Of a DNA stretch of 64,000 nt, positions 3,019 to 20,394 are shown one piece after another. Source of the DNA: Alkaliphilus flagellatus (GTDB taxonomy: Bacteria; Bacillota; Clostridia; Peptostreptococcales; Natronincolaceae). The DNA lies in the NCBI RefSeq assembly GCF_018919215.1, contig NZ_JAHLQK010000001.1, forward strand, positions 92,430 through 156,429, written 5' to 3'. Numbering within the stretch: position 1 is the first letter of the stretch; the number at the start of each line of letters is the position of its first letter. Under the pieces are notes generated by a model. That model was not told the origin of the DNA and did not search any database. It saw nothing but the letters and a program-made list of their open reading frames with translations. The position numbers and the translations under genes were made by a program.

Positions 3019-4377
3019 ATGAGTAGTAAAGCTCCAAACAAAATCGATAATCTTTCTAGAAGTATTATCAATGAAGTAGGTGGAAGTAGTAACATTAAAA
3101 CCGCAGTAAATTGTATGACAAGATTGAGATTAACCTTAAAGGATGAAAGTAAGGTTAATCTGGATGCTCTAAAAGCTGTGGAAGGTGTTATGGGGGTAGT
3201 AAAATCTGATGGACAACTACAAGTAATTGTAGGTCCAGGAACAGCAACTAAAGTTGCTGAAGAAGTAAGAAAAATTGCTGGTGTATCAGAAAACATCAAG
3301 TTTGGCGAAGCTGACAAAGTAAAGAGTGAAATGAAATCTAAATATGGAAGTTCATTAAGTGGACCATTAAAGAAGATTTCTAATATTTTTATTCCTCTTA
3401 TTCCTGCTTTTATAGGCTCTGGTTTAATTATGGGTATTAATAACCTAATTACAAAGTGGGAATGGGTACAACCAGGAACATTAACTGCTTTATTAGGCAT
3501 ATTTGGTAATGCAGTATTTGCTTATATGGCTATAATGGTTGGTATGAATGCTGCAAAAGAATTTGGTGGTTCTTCAGCTCTAGGTGGAGTTATGGCTGGT
3601 ATTCTTCTTGCACCAGGCTTAGCAGATGTTGAACTTTTTGGTAAGGCCCTAGTACCAGGTAGAGGTGGAATAATTGCAGTTTTATTAGTAGTGGCATTTT
3701 CATCTTTTATAGAAAAGAAATTAAGAAAATCTATACCGGAATCATTAGAATTAATATTTACACCTCTTTTAACTATACTAATTTCTGGTTTTGTTGCAAT
3801 GATAGTACTCCAACCTTTAGGAGGAATGATTTCAGATGGTATAGGTAATATTGTTACAAGTGCCATAGAAACAGGTGGACCTGTTGTTGGAGCTCTTTTA
3901 GCTGGTACTTTCTTACCACTTGTAATGACAGGACTACACCAAGGATTAACACCAATACATGCAGATTTGATTACTAAGCTTGGTGTAAACACACTTCTTC
4001 CTATATTAGCTATGGCAGGGGCAGGTCAAGTAGGAGCAGCTTTTGCAGTATATATGAAAACTAAAAATGAGAGATTAAAGAGAACAGTAAAAAGTGCTTT
4101 ACCTGTTGGTATTTTAGGAATAGGAGAACCTTTAATATATGGTGTTACTTTACCTTTAGGAAGACCCTTCCTTGGAGCTTGTATAGGAGCCGCATTTGGT
4201 GGAGCATTTAATGCAATGTTTAAAGTTGGATCTATTAGTATGGGATTATCAGGTCTTCCTTTAGCAACTTTAATAACTCCGAATAAAATTGTATTCTATC
4301 TTCTAGGTGTTGTAATAGCTTATGTAGCAGGATTTATTGCAACTTCTTTATTAGGCTTTGAAGATCCAGTTGAATAA
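3019..4377 (+). CDS. murP: PTS EIIBC component, MurNAc-specific (MurP-like)
   Basis: N-terminal EIIB with the CMTRLR phosphocysteine motif, followed by a polytopic glucose-family EIIC domain. It overlaps the murQ context. Confidence 0.75.
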   Translation: MSSKAPNKIDNLSRSIINEVGGSSNIKTAVNCMTRLRLTLKDESKVNLDALKAVEGVMGVVKSDGQLQVIVGPGTATKVAEEVRKIAGVSENIKFGEADKVKSEMKSKYGSSLSGPLKKISNIFIPLIPAFIGSGLIMGINNLITKWEWVQPGTLTALLGIFGNAVFAYMAIMVGMNAAKEFGGSSALGGVMAGILLAPGLADVELFGKALVPGRGGIIAVLLVVAFSSFIEKKLRKSIPESLELIFTPLLTILISGFVAMIVLQPLGGMISDGIGNIVTSAIETGGPVVGALLAGTFLPLVMTGLHQGLTPIHADLITKLGVNTLLPILAMAGAGQVGAAFAVYMKTKNERLKRTVKSALPVGILGIGEPLIYGVTLPLGRPFLGACIGAAFGGAFNAMFKVGSISMGLSGLPLATLITPNKIVFYLLGVVIAYVAGFIATSLLGFEDPVE

Positions 4378-11124: not shown

Positions 11125-11997
11125 TTGATTAATAATTCTAATGAAAAATTAGTTTTATTTGATGCCGAAGATCATATTACATTTCTTACAAATAAAGTGG
11201 ATACTGATTATCATAGTCACAACTATATTCAGATTACAGTTGGACTAGATAAGCTAAGGCTGAGTTCGGAGGAAACTTTTGCTCCCAACTCAAAGTTGTG
11301 TAAGTGCCCTGTGGGTATATCTAGGAATTGTAAGTCGTCGGATAAAAATTTTAAAATTTGTACAGAAAAAAATGAGTTTAATACAAAAGGAGTTATTCTG
11401 GATTCCAATACTAGTCATAAGTTATATGGTTATAATGAGTGGCAATTATATTTACTAATTAACCCAGAATCTGTTTTTGGAGAAACATTAAGAATAAAAT
11501 TTTTACAAGAAAAAGAAATCTATGTTTTAGAAGAAGAAGATATAGATAAAATTATTCAACTAGATATTCAGTCAGTACCAAGAATTATTAGTTCGGAAGA
11601 ATATAGTAAATTTATAAAAGGACTAAAAGAAGTTTTAAACATACCAATTTATAATTCAGATTGCAAGATAGATAATCGTATACAAGAGATTTTAAGTTAT
11701 ATAGAAGCCTACCCTTTAGATAAGTTATCTGTTAAAGACCTAAGCAATGCGATTTTTTTATCAGAGAGTAGGTTGTCTCATTTATTTAAGGAAGAAATCG
11801 GTATATCTTTATCTAGCTATATACTTCATGAAAAATTAAGGAAAGCTTTTCATTTGATATTTAAGGGGTTAAGTATTACTGATGCAGCTATTGAAGCCGG
11901 ATTTAGCAGTTCTTCTCATTTTACGAATAGTGTTCGTGATAAGCTGGGGATGACCCCTAGCGCAATTATAAAAAATAGCAGATATTTGCAAGTATGA
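11125..11997 (+). CDS. AraC family transcriptional regulator
   Basis: C-terminal double HTH (LSVKDLSNAIFLSESRLSHLFKEEIGISLSSYI...ITDAAIEAGFSSSSHFTNSVRDKLGMTPS). Confidence 0.7.
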   Translation: MINNSNEKLVLFDAEDHITFLTNKVDTDYHSHNYIQITVGLDKLRLSSEETFAPNSKLCKCPVGISRNCKSSDKNFKICTEKNEFNTKGVILDSNTSHKLYGYNEWQLYLLINPESVFGETLRIKFLQEKEIYVLEEEDIDKIIQLDIQSVPRIISSEEYSKFIKGLKEVLNIPIYNSDCKIDNRIQEILSYIEAYPLDKLSVKDLSNAIFLSESRLSHLFKEEIGISLSSYILHEKLRKAFHLIFKGLSITDAAIEAGFSSSSHFTNSVRDKLGMTPSAIIKNSRYLQV

Positions 11998-12038
11998 TAA
12001 TGAAAAACCCTTTATAATTAAATAAAAAGGGTGATTAG

Positions 12039-12737
12039 ATGGAAACATATTTAAAATCAACAAAACTATTAGACTTTAACACTTCAGATATTGAACATTT
12101 AATAAAAAAAAGAAAATGGAATTATTTAAACCAGGAAGAAAAGATTGCGGCAGCATATGATTTTGTAAGAAATGAAATTAAATTTGGCTATAATAGTGGA
12201 GATGATATATCTGCTTCTGAAGTCTTAAGAGATGGATATGGGCAATGTAATACAAAGAGTACTTTATTAATGGCATTGCTGAGGGCCTTAGGTATACCAT
12301 GTAGAATTCATGGTTTCTTTATTGATAAAAAGATGCAGAAAGGTGCATTAACAGGAATTACTTATTTATTTGCTCCTAAAAAGATTGTTCATGCTTGGAC
12401 TGAAGTATATTTTAATAATCAGTGGATAGCTTTAGAAGGTGTTATTATTGATGATAAATATCTCAATCAAGTAAGAAATAAGCTTTGTAATTTTAATAAT
12501 GGATATATGGGATATGGTATTTCTGTAAAGGATAAAGAGAAGATAAGTCTTTGTTGGAAAGGAGAAAGCACATATATTCAAAGCTTTTCTATTGTAGAAG
12601 ATTTAGGCTTATTCAATAGTCCTGATGATTTTTTTATCCAATATAACAATACTAATAATAGAATTAAAAGTCTCTTATTTAACTTTTTACGAAAAAGGAT
12701 AAATAGGAAGTTAGACTTAATTAGAAGTGACAGATAA
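12039..12737 (+). CDS. transglutaminase-like cysteine protease domain protein
   Basis: Cys-His core motif GYGQCNTKSTLLMALLRALGIPCRIHGF ... HAWTEVY. Confidence 0.6.
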   Translation: METYLKSTKLLDFNTSDIEHLIKKRKWNYLNQEEKIAAAYDFVRNEIKFGYNSGDDISASEVLRDGYGQCNTKSTLLMALLRALGIPCRIHGFFIDKKMQKGALTGITYLFAPKKIVHAWTEVYFNNQWIALEGVIIDDKYLNQVRNKLCNFNNGYMGYGISVKDKEKISLCWKGESTYIQSFSIVEDLGLFNSPDDFFIQYNNTNNRIKSLLFNFLRKRINRKLDLIRSDR

Positions 12738-12842
12738 TATGTAAGGATAATGGGATTAGGCTCAAAGATTATCAAAGATTATTAATATAAATTAAAAAAT
12801 ATTAAATACAGAATAATAGGTATGGTAATAATAAGCTAATAT

Positions 12843-12871
12843 TTGCAATATTTATTTCCATATGTTATAAT
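12843..12871 (+). promoter_or_regulatory. sigma-A promoter TTGCAA-17-TGnTATAAT (extended -10)
   Basis: Near-consensus hexamers with 17-nt spacing, in an otherwise ORF-free 1-kb region. Confidence 0.5.
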
Positions 12872-12877
12872 CCAAGT

Positions 12878-13090
12878 TAGAAATAAACAAAAATAAAGGG
12901 AGAGAATTTGATGTCCGAGGTTGTTCTTAACTAATCAACTAAATAGTTGTTTCTTAAAAAACTTTTAAACTTGATTTACATCGAGTCTGTTTCTTGATGA
13001 GTTTTTTAAGAAGAAGTTAGGAACACGGATAGAGTTCAACCTTATAATATATTAATAAACCGTGCTTTTGTACGGTATTTTTATGTCAAA
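12878..13090 (+). promoter_or_regulatory. candidate leader-peptide attenuator or small RNA
   Basis: A 7-codon ORF, MSEVVLN (12911-12934), follows an AGGGAGAG RBS. A 12-bp stem TTCTTAAAAAAC/GTTTTTTAAGAA (12949-12960 with 13000-13011) is followed by an ACCGTGC-TTTT-GTACGGT hairpin and a U-tract (13060-13085). Confidence 0.3.
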
Positions 13091-13258
13091 AAATAAATTT
13101 TATATACTATATTATCCTTTCTGATAATTTACTATTCAAAAATTTGAGTGGCTTATTTTTAATCATCAATATAGCTACTAAAAATTTTGATAAAGGATTT
13201 AATAACTCAGATTAAGGTTAAAATAGAATATTGTTTTGACATATATTATAAAATATAA

Positions 13259-13300
13259 AAGGCTGTAGTGACTTTGTGTTGCTATGGCCTTTTTTATTGT
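13259..13300. terminator. hairpin AAAAGGC...GCCTTTT with flanking T-runs
   Basis: 7-bp GC-containing stem with a roughly 23-nt loop and TTTTTTATT downstream. It could terminate either strand. Confidence 0.35.
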
Positions 13301-13731
13301 CTAATAAAGTATAAGTTTCTTAACTACTAAGCGATTTTTAAAGAGGTATAAGGTTAGCAATATTTTAAGCACTCAATTTAAAAGCTTAAGCTTTTGGATC
13401 GAGCGCATCATGAGTCGATGTAATAGCATCAGACAAATTTTTTTATTTTGTTATCCATGTTTCTAACGTACTTTCAGTTATTAGTATAACCATAGCTATC
13501 ATTCTTGACCTTTAAGAAAGGAGAGAGTAATTTGCTAATTGCAAATAAAGAACATGTACTATGAAAATGATAAAAATTAGGATTTGTAGTAAATGGTTGT
13601 TTAAAGCATCTTTTATTTAGATAATAAAGTATTTTCTATAGGTTTAAATGTAGTAATAAAAGCATTAAGCAACTGAAATTTCTAGAATATACGTGAAAAA
13701 ACTAAAATCAATATAATATGGAGTGATATTA

Positions 13732-14898
13732 ATGATTAATTATATACAAGAGGTAAATAAAAATGTAAATATACAAGAAGGAAAGCAGGCAATAGAAAAT
13801 ATATTGTTAAATATATATTTCAAAGAGGGTATTTCTAATAAAGAATTGTCAAGAAATAATCTTTTACCTATACCTGTTATTGTAGCCATAAAAAAAGAAT
13901 TTATTAAATATGGTTTGCTAGTTCAAGACAGTGGAGTAAGGTTAACTAAAGAAGGGTTAAGTTTCATAGAAAATAGGCTAGGCTTTCGTGGAATAAGAAA
14001 GGACCTATATATGAAATTATTAAAGGAAACATGGGAAGAAGAACAAGAGATTATTGAAGTTAAAAGGACATTAAGTGAAGTATTTATAAATCGACCATTG
14101 GCGGATGTTACTATAGATCAGTCAAAATGTACTTTAGATACAGCTGTAAAAAGAGCAGTGTTATGTCTACAAAATTACGCACTAGTAGGTAAAAATATTT
14201 TATGTATAGGGGACGACGATTTAGTAAGTATAGCTCTAGGTTTTTTACTTAAGAAGTTATTTGCTGATATAGAATACTGCAATACAACTATTTCTGTAAT
14301 GGATATTGATAATAGAGTCCTTACCTATATAAAAGATATTGCTGAGAAGGAAAGGCTCCCTATTAAATGTGTATGTTCAGATTTTAGAAAGCCATTATCA
14401 AAGGATTTTACAGAACAATTTGATTGTTTTTTTACTGATCCTCCTTATACTTTGGAGGGAATGAATTTATTTCTTTCAAGAGGGATTGAAGCTTTAAAAA
14501 AACAAAATGGTCTTCCTGTTTTTCTTTCTTATGCCCACAAGTCACCAGATTTTGAATTTGCTATGCAGCAATGCTTCCTAGATATGGGACTTATAGTTTC
14601 TAATGTGATGACTAGGTTCAATACCTATGAGGGGGCAGGAATAATTGGTAATACAGGGCAAATGATAGTTCTTAAAACTACTAGTAAGAGCAAGACATTA
14701 ATGCAAACTTTTTATCAAGGTCCACTTTATACTGGAGAACTAAAAAAAACAGTTCGCTTTTATAGGTGTAAGAGTTGTGGCCAAACTAATAAAGTAGGTC
14801 TTTCAGAGAAGATTAAAACTATAGAAGAACTAAAATCAAAAGGTTGTAATAAATGTAGTAATCAAATATTCAATCTAATTGATAAAAATAAGCTTTAA
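13732..14898 (+). CDS. DUF43/BpsA-like class-I SAM(dcSAM)-fold protein with N-terminal wHTH and C-terminal zinc ribbon (putative aminopropyl- or methyltransferase)
   Basis: N-terminal wHTH-like segment (GISNKELSRNNLLPIPVIVAIKKEFIKYGLL). GDDD loop (NILCIGDDDLVSIALG). A DPPY motif (CFFTDPPYT) about 70 aa later. C-terminal CKSCGQT...CNKCSN. The ATG at 13732 follows a GGAG RBS, and the ORF-track GTG at 13723 is probably not the true start. Confidence 0.45.
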   Translation: MINYIQEVNKNVNIQEGKQAIENILLNIYFKEGISNKELSRNNLLPIPVIVAIKKEFIKYGLLVQDSGVRLTKEGLSFIENRLGFRGIRKDLYMKLLKETWEEEQEIIEVKRTLSEVFINRPLADVTIDQSKCTLDTAVKRAVLCLQNYALVGKNILCIGDDDLVSIALGFLLKKLFADIEYCNTTISVMDIDNRVLTYIKDIAEKERLPIKCVCSDFRKPLSKDFTEQFDCFFTDPPYTLEGMNLFLSRGIEALKKQNGLPVFLSYAHKSPDFEFAMQQCFLDMGLIVSNVMTRFNTYEGAGIIGNTGQMIVLKTTSKSKTLMQTFYQGPLYTGELKKTVRFYRCKSCGQTNKVGLSEKIKTIEELKSKGCNKCSNQIFNLIDKNKL

Positions 14899-15088
14899 TT
14901 TATAAAAATTAAGAGCATAAACGGCTTAGCGTTCAGTGGGAGTAAAAGTTGGCTCTAAATTGAGTCTTAGTTTGTCTGTAACTTTATAATATTTCATTAA
15001 AAGTTCTATATTAGTACACAGAAAAGACACAACAAAGTATTAAACTAAAAAGTGTAGAACAATAAAATAAATATTAGGAGGAATAAAC

Positions 15089-15877
15089 ATGAAAAGAATT
15101 TTATCAACGGCGTTACTATTAACTTTATCAAGTTCATTAATTGCTACACCTGTATTTGCGAATGAGGCAAATCAAAATGTAAAGCCAACCAATGTTTTAT
15201 ATGCAAATCAAGAAATGGATCTACATGTTCTAGAAGGTACGATTAAAGATATTAGGGAATTTGATTTAGTAGTAGAGGATTCTGAGGGAAAAGAATATGT
15301 TGTACCAATATTAGGCTTTAAAAATCTAGAGGAGTACCAAGCTGCTAATGTTCAAGTAGGACAAAAAGTCTTGTTAAAAGGAATAGATCTTTCTGAATCA
15401 AAACCTGGTATATTAGTAAAAGCAATCCATGCTGATGATACTATAAATCTTGATACTAATGATTTAGAAGTTATTGAAACAGAGGAATTTAGAGATAAGG
15501 TTATATCGAATTTAAAAATAACAAAACAACTAGATACAGAAGCTGTAACAGCAATAGATGAAGCTGATTTAGATGATATGAAAACTAAGAACAGTGGACC
15601 TATACGCATAAAATTAAAGTCAGATTTTGATGAAAATAAAGTACAAGAATTAAGGAACATAGATATACTTGAAAAGGGTAAAAACATATCTAGCGAGGAT
15701 CAAGTGCAATTTGGCAAAGCTGTAATGATAGATTCAGAAGGTACAGAAGGCATGGCTGTAAAAGTTACTCCATTTAGTGATAATATGTTTATACCTCAAG
15801 AAATTACTATTAATGAAGTAACTATAAAATTACCTATGATGACAAAAAGTATAGAAACTGCTAAAACCATAAATTAG
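15089..15877 (+). CDS. secreted hypothetical protein (signal peptide)
   Basis: MKRILSTALLLTLSSSLIATPVFANE has a signal peptide with an AxA cleavage site. The mature part is acidic. Confidence 0.5.
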   Translation: MKRILSTALLLTLSSSLIATPVFANEANQNVKPTNVLYANQEMDLHVLEGTIKDIREFDLVVEDSEGKEYVVPILGFKNLEEYQAANVQVGQKVLLKGIDLSESKPGILVKAIHADDTINLDTNDLEVIETEEFRDKVISNLKITKQLDTEAVTAIDEADLDDMKTKNSGPIRIKLKSDFDENKVQELRNIDILEKGKNISSEDQVQFGKAVMIDSEGTEGMAVKVTPFSDNMFIPQEITINEVTIKLPMMTKSIETAKTIN

Positions 15878-15959
15878 TATAATATAAAATGAAGTTTATA
15901 CCTACTTATACGATATAATTATAAGTAGGTATTTTTTTCGAAATTTAGGAGGAGCTTTT

Positions 15960-16640
15960 ATGTATAGAAATTTATTATTGATAGAAGATGAAAAAAGAAT
16001 GAGAGAAATATTAGTGGATTATTTCAAACGTGAAGATTTTACAATATTTGAAGCAGCTAATGGAAGAGAGGCATTAGAGATATTTGATACTAATAATATT
16101 CATTTGGTGATTCTAGATATAATGATACCAGAAATAGATGGATGGTCTGTATGTAAAAGGATTCGAAAGGAATCAGGAGTACCTATTATTATGCTAACTG
16201 CTAGATCTGATGAAGATGACAAGCTTATGGGATACGAGTTAGGGGCAGATGACTATATGACTAAGCCGTTTAGTCCAAGAGTATTAGTTGCAAAATCAAA
16301 AATGCTTCTTAAAAGAGCTGAAGGAAATGTAGTTAATGATAATGGTCTAATTTTATGTACAGATATTGAAGTTAATAAATTATCCCGTACGGTTAAAGTA
16401 GATAATGAGCTAATAGAACTTGCTCCAAAGGAATTTGATTTACTAGTGTATATGATTCAAAATAAAGAAATGGTATTAACAAGGGAGAATATCTTAAATC
16501 ATGTTTGGGGATATGACTACTTCGGAGATTTGCGTACTATTGATACTCATATAAAAAAGCTAAGATACAAACTAAAGGATAAGGCGAAATATATTAATAC
16601 CGTTAATAGAGTAGGCTATAAATTTGAGGTGAACGAATGA
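15960..16640 (+). CDS. OmpR-family response regulator
   Basis: Receiver domain (LLIEDE...DIMIPEIDG...) with winged-helix output (TIDTHIKKLRYKL...VGYKF). Confidence 0.85.
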   Translation: MYRNLLLIEDEKRMREILVDYFKREDFTIFEAANGREALEIFDTNNIHLVILDIMIPEIDGWSVCKRIRKESGVPIIMLTARSDEDDKLMGYELGADDYMTKPFSPRVLVAKSKMLLKRAEGNVVNDNGLILCTDIEVNKLSRTVKVDNELIELAPKEFDLLVYMIQNKEMVLTRENILNHVWGYDYFGDLRTIDTHIKKLRYKLKDKAKYINTVNRVGYKFEVNE

Positions 16641-18580
16641 AAAGAAATAGTATTACCTTTAAGCTTTTTATAATAACAACTATCTTTTTTATATTATTTT
16701 TAATGATTGTAGTAATTAGCCAGTCCATGTTTTTTGAAAAATTTTATATAAATCATAAAATTAGTAAATTGGAAAAAAATTTGGAGGGGTTTGCTAAAAA
16801 ATATTATAAAGAGGGTTGGGACCAAATAACAATAACGAAAAATATTAGTAATTTTATAAATAATAATAATGCTCAAATTGCAATATTAGATGATAAAGCT
16901 ATAACTAGGCATATTCCACTATTTAATTTAATTATTGAAACAGAAGATAAAAATGAAGTAATGGTGCCTTTAAACAATATGATTTTAATGGAGACAATAC
17001 AAAAATTAAACCTTTCAATAGGAGATCCAATCGTAATTAAAGGAGTTTATTCAAATAATGAGCACAATATTATATATCCATCTAGTATTCAAGGTAAGGG
17101 AAATAGTCTGGAAGTATTGGACTCAGTAGGATTAAACATAAAAGAAAACTTAGTGATTGACACTCCTGGAGTTACTGGAATCAGCGAGAGAGAAATACTC
17201 TCAGAAAACAATTCTATCCAAGTATTAAAAAAAACACCAACTAGTTTTGCCGTTAATATCAGTAACCTTAGGCAAGAAATGATCCGGATAGATATGCGAG
17301 AAATTAAAGGGAACATAGTAGAATTAAATTTTCCAACACAGAAGGATTTTATTATGTCATATAGAGAAGATATGTTTTGGTCTGCAATGGATAACTGGTT
17401 TTGGATTTCAAAGAGTGATGATTTTGCCATAGAAAATGAAGAAATAATTAGCTATAAATATAAAAGTCCTATGAATGGAATAGATAATATTGTTATGATA
17501 AAACCTATTTTCGATAAGGGCGAATTAAAGGAAATGGTATTTGCTATGTCTTCCCTACAGCCTGTAGGAGAGGCTATAGGAGTAATGAAGGACTATTATA
17601 TTTATGGATTTTTAGTGGCAATATTAATAATTATTATTTTGTCTTATATTTATTCTAAGCTTATAGCTAATCCCCTAATAAAAATAAATAATACAGCCAT
17701 AAAAATGGCAGAATTAGATTTTTCAGTAGAATGCAATGTTAAATCTAATGACGAAATTGGAAATCTAGCTAATAGTATAAATATATTGGCTTCAAATCTA
17801 AATAAAAATATGAAAACCCTGCAGGATACAAACGAGAAGCTTAGAGTTGAAATAGAAAAAGAACGGACCTTAGAGAGAATGAGAAAAGAATTTGTATCTA
17901 GTGCTTCACATGAATTAAAAACTCCATTAGGAATTATGAGAGGTTTTACGGAAGGACTTAAAGATGAGGTTGCAATTGAGAAAAAGGATTACTATATAGA
18001 TGTTATATTAGAAGAGATAGAAAAAATGGATACCCTTGTATTAGATATGTTAGATTTGTCTAAGCTTGAGTCTAAAGCATATCTATTGGCAGAGGAAAAC
18101 TTTTATATAGATTCACTGATGCAATTGGTGAAAAATAGATTTATCCAACAGTTAAAGGAAAAAGATATTAAAGTTAATTACATGTATAGTGCCGAAGAAA
18201 TTATGGTTAGGGCAGATAAAAAAAGAATAGAGCAGGTTATAACCAATATTATTAGTAACGCCATAAGACATACGAAATTAGAAGGTTTTATTAACATTGG
18301 CATAAGGAAATATAATGAAGATAAAATTTATATAACTGTTGAAAATGAAGGAGATAGGATTCAAGAAGACAAGTTAAATCATATTTGGGATAGATTTTAT
18401 CGTGTGGAGGAATCAAGAGATCGTGAATTTGGAGGAACAGGACTTGGATTATCAATTGTAAAGAATATTTTAGAACTTCATAATAGTGATTATGGTGTGA
18501 AGAATACAGAGAATGGTGTGATGCTGTATTTTACACTAAGATTAGCTGTTGAAAAAAATTATATGAAAGCCGATTTATAG
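16637..18580 (+). CDS. sensor histidine kinase with a large extracytoplasmic domain
   Basis: 2 TM segments flank a roughly 290-aa periplasmic domain. HAMP, HisKA H-box SASHELKTPL, and HATPase N/G boxes (GGTGLGLSIV). Overlaps the RR stop by 4 nt. Confidence 0.85.
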   Translation: MKRNSITFKLFIITTIFFILFLMIVVISQSMFFEKFYINHKISKLEKNLEGFAKKYYKEGWDQITITKNISNFINNNNAQIAILDDKAITRHIPLFNLIIETEDKNEVMVPLNNMILMETIQKLNLSIGDPIVIKGVYSNNEHNIIYPSSIQGKGNSLEVLDSVGLNIKENLVIDTPGVTGISEREILSENNSIQVLKKTPTSFAVNISNLRQEMIRIDMREIKGNIVELNFPTQKDFIMSYREDMFWSAMDNWFWISKSDDFAIENEEIISYKYKSPMNGIDNIVMIKPIFDKGELKEMVFAMSSLQPVGEAIGVMKDYYIYGFLVAILIIIILSYIYSKLIANPLIKINNTAIKMAELDFSVECNVKSNDEIGNLANSINILASNLNKNMKTLQDTNEKLRVEIEKERTLERMRKEFVSSASHELKTPLGIMRGFTEGLKDEVAIEKKDYYIDVILEEIEKMDTLVLDMLDLSKLESKAYLLAEENFYIDSLMQLVKNRFIQQLKEKDIKVNYMYSAEEIMVRADKKRIEQVITNIISNAIRHTKLEGFINIGIRKYNEDKIYITVENEGDRIQEDKLNHIWDRFYRVEESRDREFGGTGLGLSIVKNILELHNSDYGVKNTENGVMLYFTLRLAVEKNYMKADL

Positions 18581-18660
18581 GTATAGGAATTAGAGTCACT
18601 CTATTAGAGTAGGTTTTTTAGCAAAAATCCAAACTATAGAAGAATTACGAGGTGATAGGA

Positions 18661-20394
18661 ATGGAACAATTATTTTCATTTATTCAAAATGAATTGATTT
18701 ATTTTGTTCAAGCAATATCTGAAGTGTTAAAAGTGGACGTACAAATTATAGATTATCAATATAATCGTGTTGCAGGAACAGGATATTGGAAAAACAAAAT
18801 AAATGAAAATATAAAGGACTATGCTTATATTACTAAGAGAGTCTTTAGGACAGGAAAAAATGCAGTTATTGAGAATCCTAGAGAAAATTTAATTTGTAAT
18901 AATTGCAATAAGAAAGAGTTTTGTAAAGAAACAATGGAAATTTCAATTCCTATAAGATTTGACAAAAGAATTATTGGTACTATAGAATGTGTATGTATTA
19001 ATAAAGAACAGAAAGAACATATAGTAAATAATAAAGCCACATATATAGTATTTATTGAACAGATGGCTAAATTATTGGAATCAAGGGTAATTGAAGAACT
19101 GGAGAAAAGAAAGAAACTAAAGGTTTTGGATTTATTAGATAATGTTTTAAATAAACTTAACGAAGGTGTTATAACAATAGATAGTAATCATAATATTGTA
19201 AATGCTAATAATTATGCAAAACGGATATTAAAGATTGACAATCATTCAAGTAATAAGATAAGTATTAAGGAAACTGGAAATATGGTATTGAAACTACAGG
19301 AATATAAAATTGAATATAATAGTAGTACATTTATAGTAGTTGGAGAAAGATATGATGTTAATTATGGCGGTCAAGAAATTAATGAAGTAATTGTGTTTAC
19401 ATCTAAACAGACCCTTAAAGAACAATTTTTAGAATTATCAGGTTCTAAGCATAATATTGAATTAGATAAAATTGTTGGAAATTCAAGTATAGTAAAGGAG
19501 TTAAAAAGAAAAATTAATACTGTTGCCTCATCAGAATCAACAGTATTAATAACAGGTGAGAGTGGAACAGGAAAAGAATTAATAGCAAGAGCTCTTCATA
19601 ATGAAAGCAATCGTTCTAACAAGCCATTTGTTGCTGTCAATTGTGCTGCTATACCGGATACATTATTGGAAAGCGAACTTTTTGGATATAGTAAGGGAGC
19701 ATTTACAGGGGCAAATCCAAAGGGTAAAATTGGGAAAATTGAGTTGGCAGATGGAGGAACATTGTTTTTAGATGAAATTGGTGATATGCCTTTATATATG
19801 CAAGCTAAAATCTTGAGAGTAATTGAAGATAAAAGTATAGTTAAACTTGGAGATATTCAAGAGAAGTTACTTGATATTAGAATTGTAGCGGCTACAAATA
19901 AAAACTTAGAAGAAATGATTAGAGAAAATGTATTTAGAGGAGATTTGTATTACAGGTTAAATGTTATTCCAATAAATATTAAACCATTAAGAGAACGAAA
20001 AGAAGATATTAAAACTTTATTCCTTCATTTTCTAAAAAAATATGGGATTATTTTTGATAAGAAAGTTACAGTAATTTCTGAGGAAATTTGGAAATATTTA
20101 TATACATATGAGTGGCCAGGTAATATACGTGAGTTAGAAAATGTTGCAGAGTATAGTGTAAATATGTTAAATAGCAATGAAATTATTTCTGTTGAACATC
20201 TACCTAATAAGATATTAATTAATAAAAAATCTGACATAGAAATAAATACTAATTTGGATGACGTAGAGCGACAATTGATTAACGAATATTTAAATATCTA
20301 TGGTTTGAGCGTAGAAGGAAAGAAAAGAGTAGCCGAAAAATTAGGTGTAAGTATAGCTACTTTATATAGAAAAATTAAAAAGTATAATATATAG
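18661..20394 (+). CDS. sigma-54-dependent transcriptional activator (sensor domain + PAS + AAA+ + HTH_8)
   Basis: GESGTGKE Walker A, GAFTGA sigma-54 contact motif, and a C-terminal Fis-type HTH (RVAEKLGVSIATLYRKIKK). The ATG at 18661 follows AGGTGATAGGA. Confidence 0.85.
   Translation: MEQLFSFIQNELIYFVQAISEVLKVDVQIIDYQYNRVAGTGYWKNKINENIKDYAYITKRVFRTGKNAVIENPRENLICNNCNKKEFCKETMEISIPIRFDKRIIGTIECVCINKEQKEHIVNNKATYIVFIEQMAKLLESRVIEELEKRKKLKVLDLLDNVLNKLNEGVITIDSNHNIVNANNYAKRILKIDNHSSNKISIKETGNMVLKLQEYKIEYNSSTFIVVGERYDVNYGGQEINEVIVFTSKQTLKEQFLELSGSKHNIELDKIVGNSSIVKELKRKINTVASSESTVLITGESGTGKELIARALHNESNRSNKPFVAVNCAAIPDTLLESELFGYSKGAFTGANPKGKIGKIELADGGTLFLDEIGDMPLYMQAKILRVIEDKSIVKLGDIQEKLLDIRIVAATNKNLEEMIRENVFRGDLYYRLNVIPINIKPLRERKEDIKTLFLHFLKKYGIIFDKKVTVISEEIWKYLYTYEWPGNIRELENVAEYSVNMLNSNEIISVEHLPNKILINKKSDIEINTNLDDVERQLINEYLNIYGLSVEGKKRVAEKLGVSIATLYRKIKKYNI

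Follow-up and report, generated by a model that had tools for sequence, protein, structure and literature searches.

A zinc-ribbon protein of the BpsA family in Alkaliphilus flagellatus and the conserved leader RNA in front of its gene

The locus

This report concerns a gene of the clostridial bacterium Alkaliphilus flagellatus that codes for a protein of the PF01861 family, the family of the branched-chain polyamine synthase BpsA, and the long leader RNA that precedes it. Both lie in a stretch of 64,000 nucleotides (nt), called the window below, which covers positions 92,430 to 156,429 of the forward strand of contig NZ_JAHLQK010000001.1 (assembly GCF_018919215.1). The gene has the extent given to it by a first-pass annotation, which was made from the letters of the window and their open reading frames (ORFs). 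In the ORF listing the frame opens at a GTG (13723-14898), and the ATG at 13732 is the start common to all homologues; it has a GGAG Shine-Dalgarno (SD) sequence 5' of it. The gap 5' of the gene measures 995 nt. The features of the leader and of the protein are collected in Table 1.

Table 1. Features of the leader and of the coding sequence, in window positions.
Feature	Position	Strand	Basis or remarks
Promoter-like site, TTGCAA, 17 nt, TG-n-TATAAT	12843-12871	+	consensus scan, 10/12 matches, extended -10 TG
SD GGGAGAG (12898-12904) and upstream ORF ATG TCC GAG GTT GTT CTT AAC TAA (12911-12934), MSEVVLN*	12898-12934	+	conserved
Structured 5' domain	12922-13025	+	helix H1, 12922-12932 with AGUUAGGAACA 13015-13025; encloses two hairpins
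First attenuator	13024-13084	+	CACGG 13024-13028, candidate antiterminator against CCGUG 13060-13064; terminator T2 13059-13076 and U-run
Second terminator T3, 16-bp stem and U-run, conserved apex	13257-13299	+	terminator scan; 99.4% paired, 4 compensatory pairs
T3-to-gene segment	13313-13622	+	blastn break points against Alkaliphilus sp. B6464 (L001); post-terminator element about 13441-13480, TTATCCATGTTTCTAACGTACTTTCAG
Coding sequence, PF01861/BpsA-family enzyme with C-terminal zinc ribbon	13732-14898	+	388 amino acids; SD GGAG 13720-13723
N-terminal winged helix-turn-helix domain, residues 18-71	13783-13944	+	secondary structure of the model; alignment with Tk-BpsA and the 2qm3 N-domain
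Rossmann-fold catalytic domain, residues 135-316	14134-14679	+	holds GDDD 14209-14220, DPPY 14437-14448, His269 and Tyr299
Y333-T-G-E336 in flexible linker	14728-14739	+	confidence (pLDDT) below 50; conservation among 150 representatives
C-terminal C4 zinc ribbon, C346, C349, C372, C375	14749-14895	+	basic, 11 K+R against 4 D+E

The protein and its clade

The protein is built from an N-terminal winged helix, a Rossmann-fold catalytic domain and a C-terminal zinc ribbon. An AlphaFold model built on 49 relatives has a predicted local distance difference test (pLDDT) score of 90 and a predicted template modelling (pTM) score of 0.86. In this model, the winged helix consists of three helices (residues 18-30, 36-43 and 47-59) and two strands (63-65 and 69-71), the linker is disordered, with pLDDT below 50 at residues 335-338, and the C-terminus (340-387) forms a small beta-rich ribbon domain. 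The GDDD loop (residues 160-163) lies within NILCIGDDDLVSIAL, and the DPPY motif (residues 236-239, in FFTDPPYT) follows 73 residues past it. The first-pass annotation had named the winged-helix-like segment, the GDDD loop in a Rossmann fold, a DPPY motif about 70 residues later and the ribbon, and all of these are present. Its only slip was in the ribbon, for which it gave a spacer of 23 residues; the four cysteines are spaced C346-x2-C349-x22-C372-x2-C375 (CKSC-x22-CNKC).

The family assignment is firm. The Pfam profile PF01861, BpsA_C (formerly DUF43), matches residues 110-318 (154.7 bits, cut-off 27, E 3.3e-45), in keeping with the DUF43/BpsA label of the first-pass annotation, and no defined methyltransferase family matches better. 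Methyltransferase matches in Pfam are weak and not significant (E 0.03-0.1; PF10237 at E 0.097, PF03602 at E 0.034), and the protein was rightly said to be no obvious DNA or rRNA methyltransferase. It was also said to be no standard spermidine synthase, and no SpeE-type spermidine/spermine synthase profile is found among the Pfam and NCBIfam matches at E up to 1. NCBIfam has no significant model for the protein. The isolated ribbon matches no Pfam family significantly, the best being Zn_ribbon_8 at E 0.035; a Trm112-like reading of the ribbon was dropped because Trm112 families are absent from its Pfam match list.

A word-indexed search returned 1362 homologues. The closest, 95% identical, comes from Alkaliphilus sp. 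B6464 (L001), and others come from Clostridium, Tissierella, Gottschalkia and Metaclostridioides. A genome scan adds Paenibacillus, Brevibacillus, Aneurinibacillus, Tumebacillus and others, all of them full length and with the ribbon. An exhaustive search of cluster representatives gave 1448 matches, 187 of them at E 1e-30 or better, and motif conservation was counted in the best 150 of these representatives, which are 28-49% identical to the protein. GDDD is invariant in the 49 relatives used for the model and is kept in 135 of the 150 representatives. Tyr239 of the DPPY motif is found in 142, Tyr299 and Tyr333 in 143 each and Thr334 in 133, while position 336 is acidic in 114 (E in 78, D in 36). 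The four cysteines, also invariant in the 49 relatives, are kept in 111 representatives, the remainder being mostly fragments, and across the clade the net charge of the ribbon has a median of +5. Judged by sequence, the protein is a member of a large and distinct Bacillota clade, which numbers at least 150 clusters at 50% identity, is marked by GDDD, DPPY, YTx(E/D) and a basic C4 zinc ribbon and is not orthodox BpsA.

Relation to BpsA

Database sources name the homologues 'bis-aminopropyl spermidine synthase family protein', so family membership is already reflected in the names and is not new. The only relatives found by sequence in the PDB are P. furiosus 2qm3, T. kodakarensis BpsA (Tk-BpsA, 5xnc) and T. 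thermophilus BpsA (Tt-BpsA, 6j27), and identity to the solved BpsAs is 21-25%. In a Foldseek comparison with the PDB, BpsA structures come out on top (E 1e-20), followed by DnrK-type O-methyltransferases. The alignment with the solved relatives begins at residue 1-5, and thus the N-terminal domain is common to the protein and the archaeal BpsA enzymes. The winged helix had been taken as part of a special combination; it is present, but it is not special to this protein.

In Tk-BpsA, the aspartates of the GDDD loop position the aminopropyl group of decarboxylated S-adenosylmethionine (dcSAM), and Asp225, Glu259, Tyr290 and Tyr316 (Tk numbering) activate the acceptor amine (PMC12979288). The reaction is of the ping-pong type, with the aminopropyl group carried by a flexible acidic C-terminal cluster (Glu339, Asp342-Glu345), and branched polyamines are reported to be thermophile-specific (PMC12979288).

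The likeness to BpsA (EC 2.5.1.128; 5xnc, 6j27; PF01861) covers the winged-helix N-domain and the Rossmann domain, the GDDD loop, the aspartate of DPP (Tk Asp225, Asp236 here) and Tk Tyr290 (Tyr299 here), and the use of dcSAM is likely shared as well. The differences begin in the acceptor pocket, where DPPE (Tk) or DPVE (Tt) becomes DPPY. The position of Tk Glu259 has no glutamate here; it aligns with His269, and among the representatives it is H in 52 and otherwise Q, A, P, S, R or N, never predominantly acidic. Tk Tyr316 falls outside the alignable region, and Tyr333 may be its counterpart. The acidic flexible carrier, which in Tt has a DEE-containing motif, gives way to a YTG(E/D) linker and the basic ribbon. 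The sole conserved acidic residue in this linker is E/D336 and, by analogy, E336 is a candidate counterpart of the C-terminal aminopropyl carrier of BpsA. The hosts are different as well (Clostridia, Paenibacillaceae and relatives), and so is the regulation. Since one defining feature of BpsA is absent and another is only partly present, the protein is filed under the family and not under the enzyme BpsA. It does not fall among the amino-group methyltransferases (N6-adenine, N4-cytosine or HemK-type) either: DPPY is present, but motif I reads GDDD.

The leader RNA

The first-pass annotation had remarked on an unusually long structured leader, and in this it undersold what is there. When 12738-13761 is compared by blastn with the regions upstream of homologues, identity is 68-84% over about 12830-13298 in many genera, and the core of the leader, an SD with an ORF of seven codons, is recognisable by blastn in Bacilli too. 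The segment 12878-13300 of the window folds at -111.6 kcal/mol (z = -8.3 against shuffles), and all the helices named here are in the minimum free energy (MFE) structure. The combined helices are 92% paired over 23 sequences, compared to 40-53% for slid controls; in the same 23 leaders, 15 pairs have changed on both sides, and none of 500 shuffles is as good. The sequence comparisons thus mark the leader as a conserved regulatory element in Clostridia and Bacilli. Rfam has no match in the whole window at the gathering score and none at E up to 1 in 12600-15200, and a Paenibacillus leader gives only chance-level hairpin matches.

The leader begins with a predicted promoter, a consensus match only, whose TATAAT is found at the same place in L001, L006 and L025 in the leader alignment. 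It is followed by the short upstream ORF (uORF). Among the 85 homologue loci from genomes that were used for gene-neighbour clustering, a fuzzy search finds the uORF 5' of the orthologue in 51, or in 60 when operon forms are counted. In all 118 of 118 non-redundant leaders, the uORF has exactly seven codons and an SD. It is made up of ATG and three variable codons, followed by GTT (116), CTT (106), AAC (114) and TAA (112); at position 2, 73 of the 118 have Ser and 26 have Leu. The sequence GTTCTTAACTAA occurs only once in the window.

The 3' end of the uORF pairs with a segment 81 nt downstream in the window, and about 80-100 nt downstream across relatives. This is helix H1, which RNAalifold predicts on 23 clostridial leaders with the last uORF codons and the stop paired, and which is 94.7% paired over these leaders. 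Codon 6 of the uORF, Leu or Phe (CUU/UUU), covaries with G/A opposite it in H1 (C-G in 10, U-A in 7). In Bacilli, the strands of H1 form a perfect 12-bp complement, GTTCTTAACTAA/TTAGTTAAGAAC. Inside H1 lie one hairpin at 12936-12949 and a long one, 12953-12962/13001-13010, with an inner stem. The conservation of uORF codons 5-7 needs care: they lack synonymous variation and form one strand of H1, so a constraint on the RNA suffices to explain it. For this reason a specific arrest peptide is unsupported and is not claimed.

Two terminators follow. CCGUG of the first attenuator is the 5' arm of terminator T2, which shows 4 compensatory pairs. Pairing in the candidate antiterminator helix reaches 85.6%, its covariation is limited, and a permutation test of its complementarity is positive but weak (duplex -5.9 versus -4.8 kcal/mol, p 3e-6); the Bacilli equivalents of the antiterminator and T2 strands are ACGGAU/AUCCGU. 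A variable region lies between T2 and T3. A T3-equivalent hairpin with the apex AAUGAC..GUUCAUU is found in Bacilli and in the leaders of MutS2-like genes, which are described below. Between T3 and the gene, the segment 13313-13622 (about 310 nt) is missing from Alkaliphilus sp. B6464. An element ATTCATGTTTC..TTTACTTT is kept 3' of T3 in other genera in the leader alignment. An SD-preceded TTG ORF of 10 codons at about 13533-13565 lies inside the missing segment.

Three further candidates in the leader were rejected. The terminator-like hairpin at 12979-12999 is treated as specific to the window, since other species do not keep its pairing and it shares positions with the conserved H3/H4 hairpin. 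The -35-like TTGACA at 13236 has no usable -10 and in the MFE structure pairs back to UGUCAAAA at about 13093. A second uORF (ATGAGTTTTTTAAGAAGAAGTTAG, 12997-13020) has an ATG that is not conserved in other species.

A leader common to MutS2-like genes

The same leader precedes a second gene family. A metagenome scan with the pattern GTTCTTAACTAA-N75-105-AGTTARGAAC gave 88 stretches, of which 80 were analysed as loci. These hold 56 genuine uORF leaders; 41 precede a MutS2-like gene (about 650 amino acids), which lies 200-450 nt 3' of the uORF leader, and 9 precede the zinc-ribbon enzyme. Examples of MutS2-like leaders come from L087-L165 (e.g., L104:5416-7659) and L031:3700-5995. The two genes can also form one operon. 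In metagenome loci L097 and L109 the order is leader, mutS2-like gene, enzyme, and in nine Paenibacillus and Brevibacillus genomes the mutS2-like gene lies 3 nt 5' of the enzyme with the uORF about 310 nt 5' of the mutS2-like gene. The leader is present in at least 60 of the 85 genome loci: with the enzyme alone, as in the window, in 31; with the enzyme and then speH in 17; with the mutS2-like gene, the enzyme and then genes for a GNAT protein, an FkbH-domain protein and an acyl carrier protein (ACP) in 7; with the enzyme and this GNAT-FkbH-ACP trio in 3; and with the mutS2-like gene and then the enzyme in 2. Most leaders of both gene families have two terminator-like hairpins, and a T3-type apex is found in the seven complete MutS2-like leaders inspected. 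The apex (UGAC..GUUC/G; window 13257-13293, L031 about 3940-3985, L104, L148 and L164) is kept across classes and in both gene families. Such conservation is unusual for a plain terminator, and a factor may bind there.

The MutS2-like protein matches TIGR01069 with 586-610 bits, only over model positions 1-511/551 of 790, and B. subtilis MutS2 (7qv3) over residues 1-515 of 785. As the match ends near residue 515, the MutS2-like protein is without the C-terminal part of MutS2. In MutS2, this part holds the Smr domain. The likeness to MutS2/RqcU, a sensor of ribosome collisions, is thus confined to residues 1-515; in the shorter MutS2-like protein, the C-terminal part is missing or replaced. B. 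subtilis MutS2 is reported to act on collided ribosomes, to which it is recruited and which it splits apart (PMC10897456).

The leader can be compared with known ribosome-dependent attenuators, such as those of B. subtilis vmlR and bmrB-bmrCD, erm/cat and E. coli toiL. A short uORF followed by terminators is the typical layout of antibiotic-inducible resistance genes. Short uORFs that report translation stress induce the protective genes vmlR (PMC9226507) and toiL (PMC12121999). The likeness lies in an SD with a very short uORF, in helices that would be mutually exclusive with intrinsic terminator(s) before the gene and in the regulation of a gene of the ribosome-rescue type as well. The present leader is unlike these attenuators in several ways. 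Its sequence is unrelated and without an Rfam family, the uORF stop and last three codons themselves form one strand of the sequestering helix, the terminators stand in tandem with a conserved apex on the second, and the leader, which spans Clostridia to Bacilli, has two gene families downstream that are unrelated to each other. A more distant parallel is the uORF of the mammalian S-adenosylmethionine (SAM) decarboxylase gene AMD1 (MAGDIS), where stalling at termination responds to polyamines. Here too a tiny uORF precedes an operon that includes a SAM decarboxylase (17 loci), and stalling at or near the stop is a plausible control point. AMD1 differs in being under eukaryotic translational control, compared to the proposed transcription attenuation here; there is no sequence similarity, and a polyamine signal is unsupported here.

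Gene neighbourhood and chemistry

The evidence on chemistry comes largely from neighbours and fusions. A Bacillus-type SAM decarboxylase (PF02675 at 5e-45, TIGR03330) lies 2-242 nt 3' of the enzyme on the same strand in 20 of the 85 genome loci, and it is fused to the C-terminus of the enzyme in representatives P0124, P0131 and P0137. Adjacency and fusion with the enzyme that makes dcSAM are the strongest available argument for the transfer of an aminopropyl over a methyl group. They bear only indirectly on whether the clade aminopropylates N4 of spermidine with dcSAM.

Other partners are also found. A GNAT domain is fused to the whole enzyme, ribbon included, in P0155, P0161 and P0194; LPG_synthase_C, an MprF-like C-terminal domain, is fused to the whole enzyme in P0144 and P0199; and P0128 has a PP-binding (carrier) domain at its N-terminus. 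The trio of GNAT, FkbH-domain protein (TIGR01686, 2e-71) and ACP lies directly 3' of the enzyme in 19 of the 85 loci (for example, L031:7179-9017, L042 and L085). With such GNAT, carrier-protein and MprF-like partners, some lineages may acylate an amine product or use an acceptor that is carrier-bound. The trio itself suggests a small pathway that acylates the product of the enzyme or uses a carrier-bound acceptor.

Interpretation

With moderate confidence, the protein is read as a dcSAM-dependent aminopropyltransferase of PF01861, one of a Bacillota clade, whose expression is gated by the leader and which forms part of a translation-stress response. This reading starts from the observed family, motifs, fold, gene linkages and conservation of the leader and its helices. 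The chemistry, as we infer it, would begin with the GDDD loop, which by analogy with BpsA may hold the aminopropyl end of dcSAM. The group would be passed to an amine bound near Asp236, Tyr239 and Tyr299, possibly via the acidic residue of the YTGE linker. A free polyamine is the simplest and most likely acceptor. Since the acceptor pocket differs from that of BpsA, the product may be something other than N4-bis(aminopropyl)spermidine. The first-pass annotation offered two functions; the polyamine or aminopropyl one is clearly favoured by GDDD and by the SAM decarboxylase linkage, and the N-methyltransferase one has lost ground.

Expression would be gated by the conserved leader of about 420 nt. 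We infer that stalling is the signal and that the switch turns as follows: a ribosome lingering on the last codons or the stop of the uORF would block the formation of H1. With H1 open, the segment next to it would be free to compete with the first terminator, leading to read-through, with the second terminator next in line. The arrangement recalls the 1:2 / 2:3 / 3:4 logic of attenuators, as bases 3' of H1 are complementary to the 5' arm of T2. Because the same leader drives genes for MutS2-like ATPases, the enzyme would be part of a translation-stress response.

Several points weigh against this reading. The acidic carrier of BpsA is missing, and the position of Glu259 has His or varies, so that the mechanism of BpsA may not apply here. 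Amino-group methyltransferases have DPPY as their classic motif, and the m6A rRNA methyltransferase METTL5 also superposes on the catalytic domain alone (Foldseek, TMt 0.72). The GNAT, FkbH and ACP neighbours and fusions suggest carrier-bound or other substrates for some members. On the side of the leader, the support for the antiterminator pairing is modest, and the constraint on H1 leaves the uORF without a claim to an arrest peptide. Finally, tblastn finds no SAM decarboxylase in the 64-kb window, a search of which SpeE was not part. The first-pass annotation had described the gene as stand-alone with no speD nearby; the latter agrees with this search, and the former is true here but not in the many relatives where the gene is operonic.

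A more specific form of the idea is possible but tentative. Here, the uORF attenuator would report ribosome stalling and switch on a two-part rescue module, consisting of the MutS2-like ATPase and the zinc-ribbon aminopropyltransferase. The ATPase would deal with stalled ribosomes. The enzyme would use dcSAM either for the synthesis of a special polyamine or for adding an aminopropyl group to an amine that is ribosome-associated, carrier-bound or part of an antibiotic, and translation would be restored or protected.

Among the rival explanations, the one that survives best, though it is unlikely, is that the enzyme aminopropylates something other than a free polyamine. The target could be a carrier-bound intermediate, an amine antibiotic (as a means of resistance) or a ribosomal, RNA or protein target reached via the ribbon and the winged helix. 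The fusions to GNAT, LPG_synthase_C and PP-binding domains, the trio found 3' of the enzyme, the co-regulation with a MutS2-like ATPase and the positive charge of the ribbon all fit this proposal. By contrast, the window gene is without such partners, as tblastn finds no GNAT, FkbH, ACP or MutS2-like gene in the 64 kb, and the winged helix is also found in BpsAs that make polyamines. We know of no precedent for the dcSAM-dependent aminopropylation of macromolecules or antibiotics. The proposal gains from the likeness of the leader layout to that of antibiotic-inducible resistance genes (vmlR, PMC9226507; toiL, PMC12121999).

It is somewhat less probable that the enzyme is an orthodox BpsA, a synthase of the branched polyamine N4-bis(aminopropyl)spermidine, as the NCBI and UniRef names imply. 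The shared Pfam family, the best structural match, the retention of GDDD, the DPP aspartate and Tyr299, and the SAM decarboxylase linkage speak for it, as does the name given by the sources, which is a family-level homology label and not a tested function. Against it stand the low identity to the solved BpsAs, the replacement of Glu259, the change from DPPE to DPPY and the basic zinc ribbon in place of the acidic tail (Glu339, Asp342-Glu345). Many of the host Clostridia and Paenibacillus species are not known as thermophiles. This also counts against an orthodox BpsA, given the reported restriction of branched polyamines to thermophiles (PMC12979288).

The last rival is very improbable. It takes the enzyme for a SAM-dependent N-methyltransferase, such as an rRNA adenine methyltransferase of the Erm kind under leader-peptide induction. 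It would account for DPPY, the METTL5 superposition, the erm-like leader layout and the weak N6-adenineMlase matches (E 0.097; 1.7e-4 in P0131, below the cut-off). Against it, the acidic GDDD stands in place of the glycine-rich SAM loop; in BpsA this motif holds the dcSAM amine (PMC12979288), and it would repel the SAM carboxylate. A methyltransferase would also give little reason for SAM decarboxylase to be fused or adjacent to the enzyme, and no methyltransferase family reaches significance in Pfam or NCBIfam.

BpsA-type enzymes have been described as a thermophile speciality, and the clade is a large uncharacterised branch of them in Clostridia, Paenibacillus and relatives. It differs in the acceptor pocket, and where BpsA has its catalytic acidic tail it carries a zinc ribbon. 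The clade probably makes a polyamine or amine conjugate that has yet to be assigned to these organisms, and the database name 'bis-aminopropyl spermidine synthase family protein' should not be taken to state what the enzyme does. The leader is a widespread cis-regulatory RNA outside Rfam, and its sharing leads to the hypothesis that ribosome stalling induces a dcSAM-using enzyme together with a MutS2 paralogue. If true, the rescue module would link polyamine-type chemistry with bacterial ribosome quality control or intrinsic antibiotic tolerance, a link previously unrecognised. A search of the accessible literature found nothing on the clade architecture (DPPY, lost acidic carrier and zinc ribbon), the fusions, the leader or the MutS2-like link, although such absence is no proof of novelty.

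Neighbouring genes

The genes around the locus in the window have no evident functional link to the enzyme. Their Pfam labels are those of the syntenic genes in the close relative L001. Upstream (from 11125-12737) are an AraC-type regulator and a transglutaminase-core protein. Downstream (15089-20394) are a 262-residue protein with a hydrophobic, signal-peptide-like N-terminus and no Pfam match, a response regulator and histidine kinase pair and a sigma-54 activator.

A general link of the enzyme to ABC-F proteins is not claimed. The ABC ATPase cluster among the neighbours is mixed; of two members tested, the one in L008 is an ABC-F and the one in L032 an exporter. The former, in Tissierella simiarum (L008:3851-5398), is a ribosomal-protection-like ABC-F (NF000355, 409.8 bits) and lies just 5' of the leader.

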